Below, piece by piece: positions 26,808 to 34,188 of a stretch of 41,750 nucleotides of DNA (its first letter is position 1; the number at the start of each line of letters is the position of its first letter). The stretch comes from an uncultured archaeon (GTDB lineage: Archaea > Asgardarchaeota > Lokiarchaeia > Sigyniarchaeales > SOKP01). The DNA lies in NCBI GenBank assembly GCA_964632315.1, contig CAZWEM010000044.1:1-41750 (forward strand), read 5' to 3'. The notes beneath the pieces were generated by a model. That model had not been told where the DNA came from, made no database searches, and saw nothing but the letters and a program-made list of their open reading frames with translations. The position numbers and the translations under genes are program-made.

Positions 26808-28028
26808 CTAAATTCCAAATGCTTGCTTTATTTGTTCAATCCTCTTTTTAGCTTTCTCTAAAGTGATTTGGGCTTTTTTAGGATCATCTTGTAGAATAAA
26901 ATTATACTTTGCAAGTAATTGTAATTCATTAGGTTCAAGAGTTTCTCTTTTTTTCAACTTCTCCAAAATAATCATTAATTCCGCATAATTTTGTGAAGCA
27001 GCATCCTCATAGAGTTGATTAAGTAGAAACTGAGAACCACTTTCTTTTTTCACTTTTAACATTAAATCATCAATGAGTTCGTTTACAAAAACTTGTTCAT
27101 TTTTGTCAGTTTTAGGTTTAGGAAGCTCATTTACTATTCTACTGTTCTCATTTGAATTTAATGATTTAGTAGTTGGGATAAATTCTTCTGAATCTATTAA
27201 ATCTCGAAGTATTTGAGTTATTTCATTAGACACATCATTTAAATCAGAATTAAGATACTGCTTAAATATAGCCAGGTTAAGAAGTTGTTTCAGATCTTTT
27301 ACTTCCCAATTATTGGTAATTTCGGCCAAATTCTTTATTTCAAATACAATTTTTGGATACTTCTCAGAAATAGTTGATAAGAATGATAGTCTTTCTTCTT
27401 TTTTTAACGTGGAAATTCGTATAAATAGATCAAATAATTCAAATATGTGAGTAGAATTATCATAAATTTCTGGTAGATTATGATTTATCCAAATAAAAAA
27501 TGAACCATGATCCAAAAAGGAATAATTAATTGGCTTTTTTAGGAAATGTGATAAAAAACCCTTCATTAAATTATGATTCTTTAAAGTTAAGTCTTCTGAT
27601 TGTTCAAATATTATTAAGTTTTTTATTTTATTTCGATCAGTCGAATCATTTTGTTTCCTATCATCAGAATTTCTTTCAATAAGAGTCCATTCGATGATCT
27701 CATTAAAATTGTCATAAAATTTATTCAAATCTCGGAGAATTATTTCATAATTAAAGTCCACAAAATTTATATTATAGTTTTTTGCTATAAGTCTGAAAAA
27801 ATCATTAATATCAGTTCCATATCCAATATTGATAAGTAATGCTCCTTTTGGATAAATATATTGTTTTACAATCTCATCATCATCGTTAATCATCATTATT
27901 TTTAAATAATTAATTATCTCTTGGTATTTTTCCCTAAAAAAGATTTGATCTTGAGAGATATCGATATCGCTTGGATCAGAAACACAAATGTATTGAGATA
28001 AATTTAATTGACTTTTATATTCGTCCAT
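26808..28028 (-). CDS. Degenerate AAA+ ATPase-like protein
   Basis: PKGALLINIGYGTD...FRLIAK mimics the PKG.LL.GPPGTGKT..A.AIA region but lacks GKT. LIIFEQ at the Walker B position, FDL.I.I......ER and a lid-like region follow. Confidence 0.6.
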   Translation of the reverse strand: MDEYKSQLNLSQYICVSDPSDIDISQDQIFFREKYQEIINYLKIMMINDDDEIVKQYIYPKGALLINIGYGTDINDFFRLIAKNYNINFVDFNYEIILRDLNKFYDNFNEIIEWTLIERNSDDRKQNDSTDRNKIKNLIIFEQSEDLTLKNHNLMKGFLSHFLKKPINYSFLDHGSFFIWINHNLPEIYDNSTHIFELFDLFIRISTLKKEERLSFLSTISEKYPKIVFEIKNLAEITNNWEVKDLKQLLNLAIFKQYLNSDLNDVSNEITQILRDLIDSEEFIPTTKSLNSNENSRIVNELPKPKTDKNEQVFVNELIDDLMLKVKKESGSQFLLNQLYEDAASQNYAELMIILEKLKKRETLEPNELQLLAKYNFILQDDPKKAQITLEKAKKRIEQIKQAFGI

Positions 28029-28124
28029 AATAATTTTATCACTTCTATATTTACATGATAACTTGAAAATAAATATTTAGTGGTTAAGACGGTACAATAA
28101 AATTGATTTAGCAAAATTAGGAGC

Positions 28125-28379
28125 CTAATTTATTTCTTCCTTGCTATGCATGCAAAAACTTTCCCCTTTTAACTTATAGGCGATAAATATGCTACATTCT
28201 GGACATCTACACCCATTATTTTGGAATTCTTCCAATGGTTTTGTAGTTTTTCCTCGAGAACAAAATAGTAGATGGGGTTCAAATTCATTTAGTCGGTTTG
28301 GTTTAAACGAAGGGCAAACAAAACAAAATTTTCTGCACTCATTAAGAATTTCTTCTAAATCGGGAACTTGGTTAGGCAT
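28125..28379 (-). CDS. Small Cys-rich protein (DUF2769-like)
   Basis: C...C..CPSF, LFCSRGK, GCRCPEC and FC pattern. Confidence 0.75.
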   Translation of the reverse strand: MPNQVPDLEEILNECRKFCFVCPSFKPNRLNEFEPHLLFCSRGKTTKPLEEFQNNGCRCPECSIFIAYKLKGESFCMHSKEEIN

Positions 28380-28509
28380 AAAAAAATGTATCTCTATTTG
28401 ACATAGGATAAATTAGAACTTGATATAAATTTGATATTTATAGTTTATTAGATCAAAGTTGTAGTAGGTAGCCATATAAGGTGGCTTGAATAGAATTTTA
28501 TCAAAACTC

Positions 28510-28869
28510 TTATTCAAAATTTAAAAATTTACAGGTTTGATTTAATAGTTTGTTTAACATATCTAAATTTAACGAATAATACGTATATTTCCCTTTTTTC
28601 CAACCTCGGATTAAGTCAAGTTTCTCCAATTCGCGCAAATGATGAGAAATTGATGGTTGAGATTTATCTAAAATAGCTTCTAATTCACAGACACATCTAT
28701 CTTTTTCTTTCAATACATTAATAATTATCAATCTTTCAATATTGCCCATTATACTAAGAAAATCGAGAGTTCGATTTAATCTATCACTATATCTTAAATC
28801 CTTTCCCAATTCCTGTAACTCTTTGAATAAATTATCAGTATCGGTACAAGTATCACATGAACATAACAT
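28510..28869 (-). CDS. arsR: ArsR/SmtB family transcriptional regulator (may start at ATT 28902)
   Basis: R..I...L...DRCVCEL......SQPSISHHL..L....LI..KKGK...YSL; N-terminal CxCxxC; divergent from acr3. Confidence 0.92.
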   Translation of the reverse strand: MLCSCDTCTDTDNLFKELQELGKDLRYSDRLNRTLDFLSIMGNIERLIIINVLKEKDRCVCELEAILDKSQPSISHHLRELEKLDLIRGWKKGKYTYYSLNLDMLNKLLNQTCKFLNFE

Positions 28870-29110
28870 GTCTTTAATCTTGGATTGCCTTTTCGCTTTA
28901 ATCTTAAAACACCATTATAAATATTGAAATATAGAGCGGTTAATATTAAGATAAAAGTTTTGAAATTATAAAAATTTTATTCAAATAAAATGAAGTTGAT
29001 TCAAATCGAAATGCTTTTATTTTACACTAAATTCTAATATATCAAGCTCTAAGATAAGGATTTTTATTTTAACAAAGTATGAAACAATTTAATAGCCTAA
29101 ATTGAGAATT

Positions 29111-30193
29111 ATGGTTGAAGAAGAATTTGAAAAAGAAGTATTCGATGAAATAGAAATTGATGAGCAAAAATCGCGTAAAATCAATTATTTTGAAAAATTT
29201 TTACCTCTTTGGGTCGGGATTTGTATAATAATAGGATTAGCTCTTTCTCAATTTATTCCTCGGATTAGCCAAGTGATTGATTCATTACAGATTGGAGGCA
29301 TCTCAATTCCTATCGGTATTTGTTTATTTTTAATGATGTATCCTGCCATGCTTAACATACAAGCATCTGAATTGAAAAAATTAGGAAAAAATCCAAAACC
29401 AATAATTTTGACTTTAGTTTCAAATTGGCTTGTAGCACCTTTCGTTGGTTTAGCCATGGCTTCTATATTTCTTCCGGGAAATTCTGGAGCGATGAGACAG
29501 TTAACAGTCGCTGTCATATTATTATCTAGTTCACCTTGTACTGCTATGGTTTTAGTCTGGGGTTGGATGGCAAAAGGTAATCAAGAACAAAATGTGGTAA
29601 ATACAAGTTTAAACACGGTTACTATAATCTTTGGTTATGTTGGAATGGTTTCGCTTTTAACGGGGATTAAAAATATTCCAATAGACATTTGGCTTTTATT
29701 AATTTCCTTAATCATCTTTATAGGACTTCCATTATTTCTAGGAATCATCTCTAAGAAGCTTATTGTTACGAAAAGGGGTATAAATTGGTTTAATGATTCA
29801 TATCGACCTGCTGTTGGTAAGATCTCAATATTTGCACTTCTCGTGACTTTGATTGTCTTATTTTCATTAAACGGAGATGCTTTACTTAATAATCCTGATT
29901 TACTAGTCTTAGTTTCCATCCCTCTCTTAGTTGGTTTTTTAATTGTTGTTGGATATAATGTTCTTGTGACCAAAATATTCAAATTGAAATACAAAGAAGC
30001 TGTAATCACAGTTATAATTGGTTCATCAAGTCATTTTGAAATTGCTATAGCAACAGCAATCACTATGTTTGGTATTGGTTCCGTGGCGGCATTAGGTACT
30101 ACGATGGGGCTTTTTTGGGAAGTCCCTGTAATGCTTTCAATAGTATATTTAGGTAGATACCTGGGCAAAACTGGTTTTTGGAAATCAGATTAA
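29111..30193 (+). CDS. acr3: Arsenite efflux transporter Acr3 (ATG 29111; ORF track uses TTG 29102)
   Basis: FEKFLPLWV, LMMYPAM, NWLVAP, PCTAMVLVW, S.HFE.AIA.AI..FG and EVPVML motifs. Confidence 0.93.
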   Translation: MVEEEFEKEVFDEIEIDEQKSRKINYFEKFLPLWVGICIIIGLALSQFIPRISQVIDSLQIGGISIPIGICLFLMMYPAMLNIQASELKKLGKNPKPIILTLVSNWLVAPFVGLAMASIFLPGNSGAMRQLTVAVILLSSSPCTAMVLVWGWMAKGNQEQNVVNTSLNTVTIIFGYVGMVSLLTGIKNIPIDIWLLLISLIIFIGLPLFLGIISKKLIVTKRGINWFNDSYRPAVGKISIFALLVTLIVLFSLNGDALLNNPDLLVLVSIPLLVGFLIVVGYNVLVTKIFKLKYKEAVITVIIGSSSHFEIAIATAITMFGIGSVAALGTTMGLFWEVPVMLSIVYLGRYLGKTGFWKSD

Positions 30194-30239
30194 AATACCA
30201 TTAGTACAGAACATAATTAAACATTAGAAGTGGAATGTA

Positions 30240-31892
30240 ATGGCAGTAACGTATATGAAAAGGTTAGAAGAAGAACCTGACACCTATGATGAAAAGTTTA
30301 CGAATTTAACTAAAGGCATAAATCTTGAAGTATTTGAATGGATTTTAGGAAATTTAGATGACGATGATAGCTCTATACTAGAGGTAGGATGTGGAACTGG
30401 AAAATTATCAGCAAATATCGCACATAGTTCGAAAAGAAATGTGATTGCAATAGATCAGAATATTGAAATGATTAATCATGCTATGAAAGAATATCCAACT
30501 GAAATTGAGGGAACACTCCTTTACCAATTAGGAAGTTTCAAAGATCTCCCAGTGAATGAGAATTCTCAAGATATGATAATAAGCACATTCATGATATCCG
30601 AGTTAAGACCATTAGAACAACAAATTTTCCTTCGAAACGCATGGCAAGTACTGAAACCTGGGGGGAAGCTAATTATTGCAGCAGAATTTGTTCCCATGAG
30701 TATTTGGCGGTTAGGTTTTAAAATCAAGCGCTGGAGATTTAAAAAGAAATTGAGAAGGTTAAAAATAAAATCAACTAAACTAGTTAAATACTTTTTGGAT
30801 TACATAGAACCAATCGGATTCAACATAATCAAGAAAAGAGAATGGAAACATGGTTCTATCCAAGTTCTCGAGTTGGTGAAGAATCATAAGATTTCTTCAA
30901 AACCTGGTTATTATAAACCTCTACAGAAAAAATATATGGGAATTTCATCACAATTGAGAATTTATAGGTGTACATTAACAGGACAAGTCGATAGAGTTCC
31001 CATTCAACCCGGTATATATCAATCTGGAAACCCTAACAGATCTTCACCTGTTTTGGTCACCGCTAATTATGATTTTACTTATATTAAATTAATGCGAGAC
31101 CTTAGGCGTATTGATGCTTGGATTCTAGTTTTAGATACTGATGGAATTAATGTATGGTGTGCCGCAAGAGGTGATGATTTTGGTAATAATCAACTCATTG
31201 AGGCTGTTGAAGCTACTGGAATTCAAAATTATGTTGATCATAAGACATTAATTTTACCTCAACTTTCTGCAGGTGGTATTTCAATACCAAAATTACCAAA
31301 ACAATTTCCGTTTAAAATAAAATATGGACCTGTTTGGTCAAAGTATTTACCTAATTATATTGACGAAAAACCATCCAAAAAGCCCGATTATATGAAATTA
31401 GCTAAGTTTAATTTGTATCATCGAATACGAGCTGGAACCACACACACGACCTTTTTGTTAAGAAAAATTTTCATTTATCCATTATTACTCGCATTTATAG
31501 GATTAATATCTTCTCTTTACTGGACTAATAAACTTACGTGGCTGGTTTACTTTTTATCTTGGATAATCATTTCAAATGGAATCATCGCAATACTATTTCC
31601 ATTATCTAATTTCACGAGAAAATTCATATTAAAGGGAACATTTTTTGGCATATTGAATTTGATCTTACTTGGAGCTATAACAATGCTTTTTCATCAATCA
31701 ATACTATTTACAATTCTTAATTTACCATTTATCTATTGGGTTTCATTCTTTTCAACAATGTCCTTTAGTGGGTATACTATGGCAACCGCTCCAAGAGAGA
31801 TCCAGGGAGAATACCCCACATTCAAGAAGATAGATAAGATCTTAATGATTATTGCGATAATTTGTACAATAATTGGTATATTAATTTATTAA
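30240..31892 (+). CDS. Class I SAM methyltransferase fused to an HgcA-like corrinoid domain and transmembrane domain
   Basis: N-terminal ILEVGCGTG...VLKPGGKL. Central PG.Y..G.P...SPVLVTANY..T, WILVLDT.GINVWCAARG, LILPQLSA.G and YGPV. C-terminal transmembrane helices with an F.G.T..T....I..E motif. Confidence 0.88.
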   Translation: MAVTYMKRLEEEPDTYDEKFTNLTKGINLEVFEWILGNLDDDDSSILEVGCGTGKLSANIAHSSKRNVIAIDQNIEMINHAMKEYPTEIEGTLLYQLGSFKDLPVNENSQDMIISTFMISELRPLEQQIFLRNAWQVLKPGGKLIIAAEFVPMSIWRLGFKIKRWRFKKKLRRLKIKSTKLVKYFLDYIEPIGFNIIKKREWKHGSIQVLELVKNHKISSKPGYYKPLQKKYMGISSQLRIYRCTLTGQVDRVPIQPGIYQSGNPNRSSPVLVTANYDFTYIKLMRDLRRIDAWILVLDTDGINVWCAARGDDFGNNQLIEAVEATGIQNYVDHKTLILPQLSAGGISIPKLPKQFPFKIKYGPVWSKYLPNYIDEKPSKKPDYMKLAKFNLYHRIRAGTTHTTFLLRKIFIYPLLLAFIGLISSLYWTNKLTWLVYFLSWIIISNGIIAILFPLSNFTRKFILKGTFFGILNLILLGAITMLFHQSILFTILNLPFIYWVSFFSTMSFSGYTMATAPREIQGEYPTFKKIDKILMIIAIICTIIGILIY

Positions 31893-31930
31893 ATCAAATA
31901 TTATAAAATTAGAAAAAAAGGTGGTAAATA

Positions 31931-32236
31931 ATGACAGAAATGAAAGAAAATACGTGCTGTACTCCCACTACAATCATTCAACTTCCAAAAATTTGGGTAA
32001 ACGAATCGATATGTACTGGTTGCGGATTATGTGCAGAAGTTTGTCCATTTGGGCTCCCTCAAATGAGAAAGAATGGAAAATATGGCATTTCTGACGTAAA
32101 TTCTTGCACCGAATGCAGTGCTTGTCAAAGAAATTGCCCAGTTGCTGCTATCACTTTATCTGAGCAAAAAGGATGTGGATGTCTTTGGGATGCCCGATAT
32201 CGAATAAAGAATAATAATAAATCCTGTTGTGGATAA
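31931..32236 (+). CDS. 2x[4Fe-4S] ferredoxin, HgcB-like, with extra terminal Cys pairs
   Basis: CTGCGLCAEVCP, CTECSACQRNCP, GCGC and C-terminal SCCG; directly after the hgcA-like gene. Confidence 0.88.
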   Translation: MTEMKENTCCTPTTIIQLPKIWVNESICTGCGLCAEVCPFGLPQMRKNGKYGISDVNSCTECSACQRNCPVAAITLSEQKGCGCLWDARYRIKNNNKSCCG

Positions 32237-32252
32237 AAGAGGCGAGTGAATT

Positions 32253-32582
32253 TTGGACGAACTAAATGAAATTAAACGAAAAAATGTATCTGCAGATACT
32301 CATACTGAAAATCTAGAGCCCTCAAAACTTCAAGTTGATATTTATGTGCCCCTAAATGCTTGTGCTTGTGAATGGTCACAGTTTATGAACTTGATTTTTT
32401 CTGCAATAACACCCTACATTAAGTGTATTAAACATGAAACGAAATCATTGGATTCCGAGGAAGCTAGGGAAATGGGATTATTCAATAAATGTGTATTAAT
32501 CGATAGAGAAAAAAGATATACCACATCATATGCTCTTAAACGAGATCTGCCAAATATATTGAAGGAAAAAGGATTACTATAA
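32253..32582 (+). CDS. Small CxC protein, possibly thioredoxin-like fold
   Basis: VDIYVPLNACACEW pattern; lies in the same operon. Confidence 0.65.
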   Translation: MDELNEIKRKNVSADTHTENLEPSKLQVDIYVPLNACACEWSQFMNLIFSAITPYIKCIKHETKSLDSEEAREMGLFNKCVLIDREKRYTTSYALKRDLPNILKEKGLL

Positions 32583-32605
32583 TCATTCAGAAAAGGGGTG
32601 AAATT

Positions 32606-32962
32606 ATTAAAAAAATTAATTTTGATATAAGCATTCCAATACAAGGTCTCCAAAAAGGCAAAAAATTCACGGTTCGAGTTAATGATGATGCAACAATTAT
32701 AGAAGCACTCGCACTGGTTGATAAAATGGATCATGAGAATCCAAGCAATTCGATTTTTCCCTTATATGATGGATATATCCATAATTATTTGCAGTTATTT
32801 ATAAATCTTGAAACCGAAGAATTTTATGATGATGTTGGAATATCTGCTTATGGACCCGATAAAAATGGATTCATGCGGAAGTTCAATCCTATCCGAGACA
32901 ACATTCATTTCATCTTATATCCAGATAGCTCAATCCAACTCCAACCAGATGTGGGATGTTGA
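32606..32962 (+). CDS. Putative beta-grasp (MoaD/ubiquitin-like) protein ending in Gly-Cys; probable ATT start
   Basis: The frame of ORF 32726..32962 is open upstream (IKKINFDISIP...KKFTVRVNDDATIIEALALVD) behind a GGGGTGA site; the C-terminus is ILYPDSSIQLQPDVGC*. Confidence 0.6.
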   Translation: MKKINFDISIPIQGLQKGKKFTVRVNDDATIIEALALVDKMDHENPSNSIFPLYDGYIHNYLQLFINLETEEFYDDVGISAYGPDKNGFMRKFNPIRDNIHFILYPDSSIQLQPDVGC

Positions 32963-33234
32963 TGAGAAAAAGTGAAAAGTCGACTGAATTTTAGCAAATT
33001 TAAAACATTAATACGAAAAAAATTCGGTAAAAACAATGAATACTTTGCTCATTATCTTAAAAAATCATGAAATTTAAGCTATCGAATGATCTCTTTCAGA
33101 AATTTTAGTGAATGAGTGACAAAAGGATTGCGTCCTTAATGCTTAAAAAAAATCCATTATGAAATTTAGTGTTCTTTGTATAAAAAATAATATTAATCTT
33201 AAAATAGGGTATTCATGCTTATATTTTTGTAAAG

Positions 33235-34188
33235 ATGGATTCTTTTACTCATTTTTTAATAGGCCTCTTAATAAGTAGCTTTGCACTCAATCGTTTTGGA
33301 ATCGGCATGGTGCTTTATTTGAGCATTATGGCCATAACTCCTGATTTTGATGTGATTTTTGAGTCGTTTAAGTTCATACGTCGACATGTAAATTTAGCAC
33401 ATAAGGGTATATCACATTCTTATGTATTCGCGGTCGCAATCACAGCGATGACGGGGGTTATATTCTCATTTTTTACACAAATACCTTTTTTATATGTTTG
33501 GCCACTTGGTTTTTTGTTTTACTCTCTGCATATTACCTTAGATTTCTTAGCAGCATCGAAAACACCGATATTTTATCCAATCTCCAAAAAAAGATATCGT
33601 TTTTTCATCGATCGGGCAATAAACTTTTACATGTTATTAATCTCCTTCAGTATTATGTTATCATACGTGATAATATTTTTTGTTTGGCCAACATTTAATC
33701 TTATTGTATTTTCCTATTATGTAAGTGGATTTTATATAGTTTACTTTGCATGGCGTATAGCAATGAAAGTATATTTTAAGATTAAGCTACCTGCTTCACA
33801 TAGTTTCATACCTGGAATTACTCCCTTTACATATTATATCTATTCCACTAACACGAAAAACGAGGAGAAACATTTTATACTTGTTAAAAAAAGGATTTTT
33901 TCATCCAATTCCAGAACACTATTCGATTCAAAACTCAAATTGAATTCAGTTCAAGCAATTTTTTATGAAAGATCATTAGACTTAGCTGGAGATTATGCTT
34001 TTTTTTCCAAATGGGAAGATAAGATACCTATTATCACTGAATATGATAGTACCATAAACGTTACGATTTTACTAGCCGAAAGCTATTTTCGAAATTCAGG
34101 TTATGGGTTTCAAGCAAATTTTGACCTCAAGTCAAATGCATTAGTTAACAAATCTGAAGGATTTAATCTTCATTTGAAAATGAGTTAG
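33235..34188 (+). CDS. Membrane-bound metal-dependent hydrolase (YdjM/DUF457-like)
   Basis: MDSFTH, PDFD, HKGISHS and SLH..LD.L motifs. Confidence 0.87.
   Translation: MDSFTHFLIGLLISSFALNRFGIGMVLYLSIMAITPDFDVIFESFKFIRRHVNLAHKGISHSYVFAVAITAMTGVIFSFFTQIPFLYVWPLGFLFYSLHITLDFLAASKTPIFYPISKKRYRFFIDRAINFYMLLISFSIMLSYVIIFFVWPTFNLIVFSYYVSGFYIVYFAWRIAMKVYFKIKLPASHSFIPGITPFTYYIYSTNTKNEEKHFILVKKRIFSSNSRTLFDSKLKLNSVQAIFYERSLDLAGDYAFFSKWEDKIPIITEYDSTINVTILLAESYFRNSGYGFQANFDLKSNALVNKSEGFNLHLKMS

Follow-up and report, generated by a model that had tools for sequence, protein, structure and literature searches.

A SAM methyltransferase::HgcA-like fusion protein with an HgcB-like ferredoxin partner in an arsR/acr3-linked operon of a Loki-type Asgard archaeon

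We analysed a 41,750-nucleotide stretch of DNA (the window), contig C44 from the genome of a Loki-type Asgard archaeon (4.45 Mb, completeness 99.5%), in which a 550-amino-acid protein joining a class I S-adenosylmethionine (SAM) methyltransferase to an HgcA-like corrinoid protein is encoded next to an HgcB-like ferredoxin. The fusion gene (30240..31892, plus strand; defined by its open reading frame (ORF), Pfam, NCBIfam and AlphaFold2) and the ferredoxin gene (31931..32236, plus strand, 101 amino acids) follow a gene for an Acr3-family arsenite-efflux paralog and precede genes for a small CxC protein and a Cys-Sec-Sec selenoprotein (Sec, selenocysteine). The plus-strand gaps are 46 nucleotides (acr3 to fusion), 38 nucleotides (fusion to ferredoxin) and 16 nucleotides (ferredoxin to CxC gene), in keeping with a single operon, divergent from arsR. 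An earlier note on this DNA had reported the ORFs, domains, motif and coordinates of the 550-amino-acid protein and the ferredoxin, all of which we confirmed, and the ORF coordinates likewise agree with its placement of both genes downstream of acr3 and divergent from arsR. The three-part fusion with an HgcB-like partner that it described was borne out by Pfam, NCBIfam, AlphaFold2 and Foldseek.

The N-terminal part of the fusion (amino acids 1-230; 30240..30930, plus strand) is a CpaM-like class I SAM methyltransferase domain according to NF043040 and Foldseek. Pfam places a Methyltransf_25/11 match at amino acids 46-146, and the CpaM model NF043040 aligns to amino acids 4-211 with 125 bits against a cut-off of 180, the runner-up methyltransferase family scoring 50 bits. 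The second part (amino acids 250-380; 30987..31379, plus strand) is a corrinoid-binding domain of CFeSP/HgcA type (CFeSP, corrinoid iron-sulfur protein; PF03599, 56 bits), with the CdhD/PF03599 match spanning amino acids 254-344. Its sequence matches to solved structures are CFeSP gamma subunits only (2h9a, 4c1n, E 1e-10), no experimentally solved HgcA structure being among the matches. The domain carries the cap helix NVWCAARG (31149..31172, plus strand) within the longer string GINVWCAARG (amino acids 302-311, nucleotides 31143-31172), and Cys307 (codon 31158-31160) is the counterpart of HgcA Cys93.

The C-terminal part is a five-helix transmembrane domain homologous to that of HgcA (31413..31886, plus strand; AlphaFold2, NF040863 and Foldseek), with predicted helices at amino acids 392-424, 426-456, 462-485, 488-512 and 518-549. 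The AlphaFold2 model of the fusion protein, built with a 60-sequence alignment, has a mean predicted local distance difference test score (pLDDT) of 92.8 and a predicted template modelling score of 0.89; in Foldseek its top match, over 329 columns and with E 4.6e-13, was 9a0b_A, a deposited model of HgcA, and class I methyltransferases ranked next. The HgcA model NF040863 covers amino acids 254-545 and reaches profile position 321 of 325, with 190 bits (191.7 in the genome-wide search) versus a cut-off of 275, and the HgcAB-like model NF043039 gives 189.6 bits versus 285, its alignment ending at profile position 280 of 350. In a set of 60 fusions that reaches down to 23% identity, six SAM-binding residues (G50, G52, G54, D72, E121 and E149) are invariant, as are N304, V305, C307 and A309 of the cap helix, and W306 is nearly so.

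The cap helix of the window protein fits none of the six high-stringency HgcA motifs of Capo et al. 2022 (N(V/I)WC(A/S)(A/G/S)GK; PMC10087281), with the N, W and Cys positions kept. In true HgcA the cap helix reads NVWCAAGKGTFG, with the core NVWCAAGK, while the Asgard fusions share NVWCAARGxxFG and other paralogs have NVWCAAGGG and similar strings; the RG ending is thus specific to the window clade. The earlier note had taken the GK-to-RG change as a cue to the substrate, which is not supported, the change marking the clade and not showing substrate choice. In a maximum-likelihood tree computed from the HgcA-like part, with the corrinoid domains of nine CdhE proteins as the root, true HgcA (support 100/100), the HgcAB-like proteins together with triple fusions (98/97) and the Asgard fusions (100/100; 98/93 with one further sequence) are separate clades, and the window protein lies outside the first two. 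The base of this tree is a polytomy, and the order of the three groups was not recovered; a sister relationship of the Asgard clade to true HgcA, seen in a quick tree (support 89 in the SH-like approximate likelihood-ratio test, SH-aLRT), was dropped after the careful tree did not confirm it. Since the window protein falls below the NF040863, NF043039 and NF043040 cut-offs, has no GK motif and belongs to a 100/100 clade of its own, its sequence places it in neither named family and in a third lineage.

The profile search and phylogeny proposed in the earlier note therefore set the protein below the HgcA cut-off and outside true HgcA, and its caveat that associated methyltransferases might already be catalogued was right: NCBIfam holds CpaM (NF043040) and HgcAB-like (NF043039) as 'hypoth_equivalog' entries. 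Haft and Gwadz (J Bacteriol, 2023) reportedly may discuss these NCBIfam families. Neither a methyltransferase::HgcA-like fusion nor CpaM turned up in the literature that we searched. In the analysis of Lin et al. 2023, for which the first 327 alignment columns were trimmed, the fused-HgcAB clade includes some Asgard sequences (PMC10083202).

The fusion is widespread among the Asgard archaea. A word-indexed search yielded 1139 homologs, and the best 120 of them are proteins of about 550 amino acids, 58-85% identical, from Loki-, Hermod-, Hod- and Odin-type metagenome-assembled genomes, annotated merely as 'methyltransferase domain-containing protein'. Full-length orthologs were found in 27 distinct species-level genomes; chance and an assembly artefact were both rejected on the strength of these orthologs and of homologs of like length and architecture. 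In a phylum sample of 151 genomes some match was present in 50, including 11 of 12 genomes of the window's genus. An exhaustive search over 50%-identity representatives extended the full-length fusions down to 25% identity and detected triple fusions methyltransferase::HgcA-like::ferredoxin of 580-644 amino acids, of which P0144 and P0153 exceed both the CpaM and the HgcAB-like cut-offs. The CpaM cut-off of 180 is exceeded by P0141 (231 bits), P0148 (212 bits) and P0144 (265 bits). All permutations of methyltransferase, HgcA-like protein and ferredoxin exist, which is strong evidence that the three modules work together. The window's genome also encodes, on contig C14 (L013:8528-10294, minus strand), a bona fide CpaM (249 bits) and, adjacent to it, a bona fide HgcAB-like fusion (363 bits), the pair being located beside a small GTPase gene and without ars context.

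The ferredoxin (NF040864, 55 bits, cut-off 99) has two CxxCxxCxxxCP motifs, an N-terminal CC (C9, C10), a GCGC (C82, C84) and a C-terminal SCCG (C98, C99). Its gene adjoins the fusion gene in all 27 Loki-type loci and all 6 distant loci of our context sample (27 distinct Loki-type loci from species-representative genomes, the window excluded, plus 6 distant loci, Thor-type and one bacterial fusion, at 28-32% identity). The Gly-Cys after cluster 2 and the C-terminal Cys-Cys of HgcB were reported to be crucial for methylation (PMC11588087). The C-terminal CC of true HgcB is retained in the window ferredoxin, while the fused HgcAB-like and triple-fusion proteins stop just past the second cluster, without the CC tail. 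The separate ferredoxin gene and the kept Cys tail tie the fusion closer to true HgcAB than to the fused HgcAB-like proteins.

The ArsR/SmtB metalloregulator (28510..28869, minus strand; NF033788, 67 bits, cut-off 55) has an N-terminal CxCxxC and an alpha-3 CVC (DRCVCEL), both conserved in the Loki-type and Thor-type fusion neighbours. The first gene of the operon encodes the Acr3-family paralog (29102..30193, plus strand, the ATG at 29111 being a likelier start than 29102; PF01758, 130 bits), which at 271 bits falls just short of the TIGR00832 cut-off of 282.8. It is 69-80% identical to the Acr3 encoded upstream of the fusion in 14 of the 27 Loki-type loci. A Cys-rich ArsR is encoded near the fusion in 17 of these loci and MarR in 5; in 2 loci the operon also includes a bona fide ArsM (in one relative 347 bits against a cut-off of 263). 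In the distant loci a co-directional CVC-type ArsR lies immediately upstream in 5 of 6, and Acr3 is near the fusion in none of the 6. The protein tree has ArsR and ArsR+Acr3 contexts on all deep branches, and the MarR and ars-free contexts fall in one derived subclade, which makes the linkage to ArsR look like an ancestral trait of the Asgard fusions. The fusion and its ars linkage are conserved in relatives, a point on which the earlier note had let its reading depend.

The genome has a second, canonical divergent arsR-acr3 pair on contig C23 (L121:1-3718; Acr3, 440 bits), which adjoins Asgard-type GTPase genes and has the same GC content. Its Acr3 is 31% identical to that of the window, with the aligned Cys and Glu kept in the latter. 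The C23 ArsR has CVS, not CVC, and the neighbours are two DGC-domain genes and a gene for a SLAC1/TehA-type anion channel. Because a canonical pair is present elsewhere in the genome, the window operon is probably a specialised module and not the sole arsenite defence. Profile searches of the whole genome detected no ArsM over the cut-off and, with NF040863, no true HgcA, and ORF and Pfam annotation of the operon detected no mer genes. ArsM and fusion show no clear pattern of co-occurrence in the family (fusion without ArsM 6-8, both 4, ArsM only 3, neither 2), the kin not being independent.

The gene after the ferredoxin (32253..32582, plus strand) encodes a small CxC protein of 109 amino acids, with orthologs in the fusion operons of 12 of the 27 Loki-type loci, whose core VDIYVPLxxCxCxW is invariant. 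It has no Pfam or NCBIfam match; AlphaFold2 predicts its core at a pLDDT of about 90, and Foldseek relates it to thioredoxins with template modelling scores of 0.5-0.6 at weak E-values of 3e-3 or worse. The N-terminal tails of several orthologs are rich in vicinal cysteines (for instance, NSCCTQSTSCCGS and DSCGCGCTC), and the protein may be a metal(loid) chaperone.

The operon's final gene (32600..33070, plus strand; present in 11 of the 27 loci) reads '...QPDVGC' followed by TGA TGA at 32960-32965, with a genuine stop at about 33068. Its reading as a 78-amino-acid ORF ending in Gly-Cys was rejected, since a conserved in-frame tail of about 35 amino acids (EKVKxRLxxxxFKTxIRKKxGKNxxYFAHY) continues beyond the TGA TGA, and both occur in all 12 distinct copies (the window and 11 orthologs). 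In the window the frame is open from 32561, with no ATG, GTG or TTG start before 32726. The 3' untranslated region contains an element resembling a selenocysteine insertion sequence (SECIS) (33084..33140, plus strand), composed of ATGA, an 8-bp stem, GAC and a second hairpin; an alignment of 9 loci shows it to be conserved, and 4 of its 13 pairs have compensatory changes. The Rfam scan of 27900-33300 and 32900-33260 matched no riboswitch and no SECIS family. The conserved TGA TGA and tail, together with the compensatory changes in this element, indicate at the sequence level a Cys-Sec-Sec selenoprotein with a SECIS-like element. Selenoproteins have been reported to be linked to organometallic chemistry, and this one would bring Asgard archaea into that link.

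Considering what was observed (the arrangement of the domains and their conservation, the permutations of the fusion, the linkage of the genes and the position in the tree), we estimate a probability of roughly 0.6 that the operon encodes an HgcAB-type corrinoid methyltransferase system that is bound to the membrane, charges itself and is directed toward a soft metal or metalloid. Purified HgcAB uses SAM and not methyl-tetrahydrofolate (Zheng et al. 2024, PMC11588087): SAM methylates Co(I) to methylcob(III)alamin with Co-S(Cys) ligation, the methyl group is passed to Hg(II), and the ferredoxin gives the electrons; methyltransferase fusions go unmentioned in that paper. From this published work on true HgcAB we carry over three points, namely SAM as donor, methyl-Co(III)-Cys as intermediate and reduction by the ferredoxin, and we infer the SAM-to-Co role of the fused domain and the choice of acceptor. 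By analogy, the HgcB-like ferredoxin would reduce the corrinoid cobalt of the HgcA-like domain to Co(I); the fused class I domain would bind SAM and methylate Co(I), giving Cys307-ligated methyl-Co(III) and S-adenosylhomocysteine (SAH); and the methyl group would then pass to a thiophilic metal or metalloid held on the vicinal cysteines of the ferredoxin tail, possibly presented also by the CxC thioredoxin-fold protein and the Cys-Sec-Sec protein. Expression would be set by the thiolate-type ArsR and coupled to the Acr3-family exporter. Delivery of the SAM methyl group to Co(I) is the best reading of the fused domain because the SAM-binding and cap-helix residues are invariant and HgcAB itself uses SAM. 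The SAM-to-cobalamin relay proposed in the earlier note is thus the natural reading of the invariant SAM residues and Cys307, of the fusion permutations and of the HgcAB chemistry (PMC11588087). Of 42 true hgcA loci, none proved to have a CpaM-like gene at a distance of up to about 8 kb, which fits a dedicated SAM-loading domain in the paralog lineages.

As read from the genes, the thiolate sensor and the arsenite-type carrier, the ferredoxin with its CC tail, and the CxC and Cys-Sec-Sec proteins argue for a soft metal or metalloid as acceptor. Arsenic is favoured, though As(III)/Sb(III) as the physiological acceptor is a tentative assignment; Hg(II) or another soft metal is unlikely, a non-metal acceptor is rather improbable, and a sizeable share of the probability falls to none of these. 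In its most specific form, the proposal is that the pair is an ArsM-independent, cobalamin-dependent arsenite/antimonite methylase with its own SAM domain and with the CxC and Cys-Sec-Sec proteins as helpers, which we consider doubtful; if true, metalloid methylation would be native to the wider HgcA family and mercury methylation by true HgcAB a side reaction. The earlier note had seen in the ars context a pointer to As or Sb over Hg, and this did not hold up: true hgcAB is equally flanked by arsR, acr3, arsC and arsM (McDaniel 2020, PMC7438021), so the ars context cannot separate As from Hg. A direct arsenite methyltransferase of the ArsM type was rejected, the fused domain having no Cys triad and scoring 36 bits.

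Several observations weigh against a metal(loid)-directed, SAM-charged corrinoid system. Cys307 is the sole invariant cysteine of the 550-amino-acid protein in the 60 fusions, which leaves the fusion itself without an As(III) site of the ArsM kind. The hgcAB regulator is an ArsR responsive to As and to SAH (bioRxiv 10.1101/2022.10.17.512643), and an ars-type regulator is thus no proof of a metalloid substrate; moreover, in one derived subclade (99% support) MarR replaces ArsR or no ars genes are nearby. Organisms with the related fused HgcAB failed to methylate Hg in culture (PMC4646819, PMC10087281), and kinship to HgcA is therefore no guarantee of metal methylation. Finally, the fused domain could do otherwise than charge the corrinoid in each turnover (a second methylation, or reactivation only), since HgcAB needs no such domain.

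Three alternative explanations are held to be less probable. The pair could be a functional mercury methylase with HgcAB chemistry and Hg(II) as the relevant acceptor, making Loki-type archaea methylators overlooked by motif-based hgcA surveys: the cap-helix N, W and Cys, the five-helix domain and the separate HgcB-like partner with GCGC and C-terminal CC are all present, SAM is the HgcAB donor (PMC11588087), and the window protein is not inside the fused-HgcAB clade whose members failed on Hg. We nevertheless regard this as quite unlikely, given the NF040863 score of 190 versus 275, the match to 0 of 6 high-stringency motifs (PMC10087281), the position outside the 100/100 true HgcA clade, and an operon that lacks mer genes and begins with an arsenite-type pump. 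The acceptor could also be organic or membrane-bound (lipid, quinone or thiol), or the corrinoid could serve in reductive dehalogenation of halomethanes. HgcAB expressed in E. coli dechlorinated CCl4 (Wang 2026 preprint, bioRxiv 10.64898/2026.04.26.720869), but dehalogenation requires no SAM domain. Also in favour of this explanation are the conserved membrane domain, a subclade governed by MarR in place of ArsR, and the phospholipid N-methyltransferases among the Foldseek neighbours of the methyltransferase domain, though these last are generic class I matches at 14-27% identity. With the thiolate ArsR, Acr3, the CC-tailed ferredoxin and the CxC and Cys-Sec-Sec proteins suggesting soft metal(loid) handling, we hold this explanation to be very improbable.

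The least probable of the alternatives is that the fused methyltransferase is a repair module only, re-methylating Co(II) in a MetH-like manner, with another turnover donor such as a Wood-Ljungdahl methyl-pterin. The combination of ferredoxin and SAM domain parallels the flavodoxin and activation domain of MetH, but the fold of the MetH activation domain differs from that of a class I methyltransferase. The genome does encode CdhE and a Wood-Ljungdahl-type corrinoid protein, and true HgcAB functions without such a domain (PMC11588087); however, no methyl-pterin-binding (MeTr, TIM-barrel) partner is in or near the operon, and SAM alone sufficed as the turnover donor of HgcAB (PMC11588087).

The system considered here, a putative self-charging corrinoid methyltransferase, resembles several known ones without coinciding with any. 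With the mercury methylation pair HgcA/HgcB (NF040863/NF040864; Pseudodesulfovibrio mercurii ND132; Parks 2013; Zheng et al. 2024, PMC11588087), it shares the corrinoid domain with a cap-helix N-V-W-C, the membrane domain homologous over its full length, a 2x[4Fe-4S] partner that is encoded separately, has Gly-Cys behind cluster 2 and ends in a Cys-Cys region, and the frequent linkage to arsR, acr3 and arsM. It differs in the N-terminal class I SAM methyltransferase, the RG in place of GK, the N-terminal CC of the ferredoxin, the CxC and Cys-Sec-Sec genes downstream, scores short of the two curated cut-offs, and a position in a well-supported clade of its own. The CpaM/HgcAB-like systems, known from genes, have the same three modules, namely a CpaM-type SAM methyltransferase, an HgcA-like corrinoid membrane protein and a ferredoxin, but in another division: the methyltransferase is separate and A is fused to B, whereas in the window the methyltransferase is fused to A and B is separate. 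The window protein scores 125 versus 180 and 190 versus 285 bits with their models and lies outside their 98/97 clade; its ferredoxin retains the C-terminal CC tail that the fused HgcAB-like proteins lack, and the C14 copy is without the ars context of the window locus.

ArsM (NF008823) has a class I SAM methyltransferase fold and is found in ars operons as well, but the window domain reaches 36-37 bits versus a cut-off of 263 and has no conserved As(III)-binding cysteines, and ArsM acts directly, without corrinoid, ferredoxin or membrane domain. The sequence SAM to Co(I) to methyl-Co(III), with electrons from Fe-S clusters or flavin, is also that of TsrM and the class B radical SAM enzymes and of MetH reactivation (PMC11588087); the folds and domain order are unrelated, the window protein is without the radical SAM CxxxCxxC, and no family but HgcA has the membrane anchor.

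The reason for microbial methylmercury formation and the true role of HgcAB have been open questions since 2013, and the 2024 finding of SAM as the HgcAB donor had been called unexpected. Natural SAM methyltransferase::HgcA-like fusions provide independent genomic support for SAM-charged corrinoids family-wide, and the Asgard lineage adds a version with the HgcB metal-binding tail, a thiolate ArsR and linkage to an arsenite-type pump, and with it a concrete, assayable candidate for B12-dependent metalloid methylation. Should the protein methylate Hg, archaea abundant in sediments would count among the methylators, and hgcA surveys with a motif filter would be discarding them.

Outside the operon, the divergent intergenic region between arsR and acr3 (28870..29101) is AT-rich, and the operator search there returned weak AT-rich repeats and nothing else. 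The scan for sigma-70 promoters and terminators gave fewer sites than shuffled sequence, its model not being applicable to archaea. Downstream of arsR and on the same strand lies a gene for a small Cys-rich DUF2769 protein (28125..28379, minus strand; PF10967, 41.6 bits), syntenic beside arsR in 5 of the 27 relatives. An AAA-like gene and the DUF2769 gene (window 26808-28379, minus strand), together with arsR, are syntenic with the operon in many genomes of the same family; the AAA-like gene is kept near the operon in 11 of the 27 relatives, and the conserved neighbourhood is the entire block from the SMC operon to YdjM.

The gene content of the operon varies among relatives. In one locus (L016:3300-7940) about 3.5 kb separate acr3 from the fusion gene; this stretch has two minus-strand ORFs (852 and 202 amino acids), bears on its flanks a duplication of the acr3 3' end (88% over the final 24 codons) and looks like an inserted element. 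Accessory genes differ from locus to locus (L027:5948-8681, L025:5921-7681, L119) and include those for a DUF166 protein, which weakly matches the selenoprotein family DfsP, for a bona fide ArsM, and, placed between acr3 and the fusion gene, for a TlpA-like thioredoxin plus a membrane protein of CcdA/DsbD type. For window positions 28500-32600 the listing of sequencing runs named none from RNA; DNA of these positions was found in salt-marsh and marsh metagenomes.

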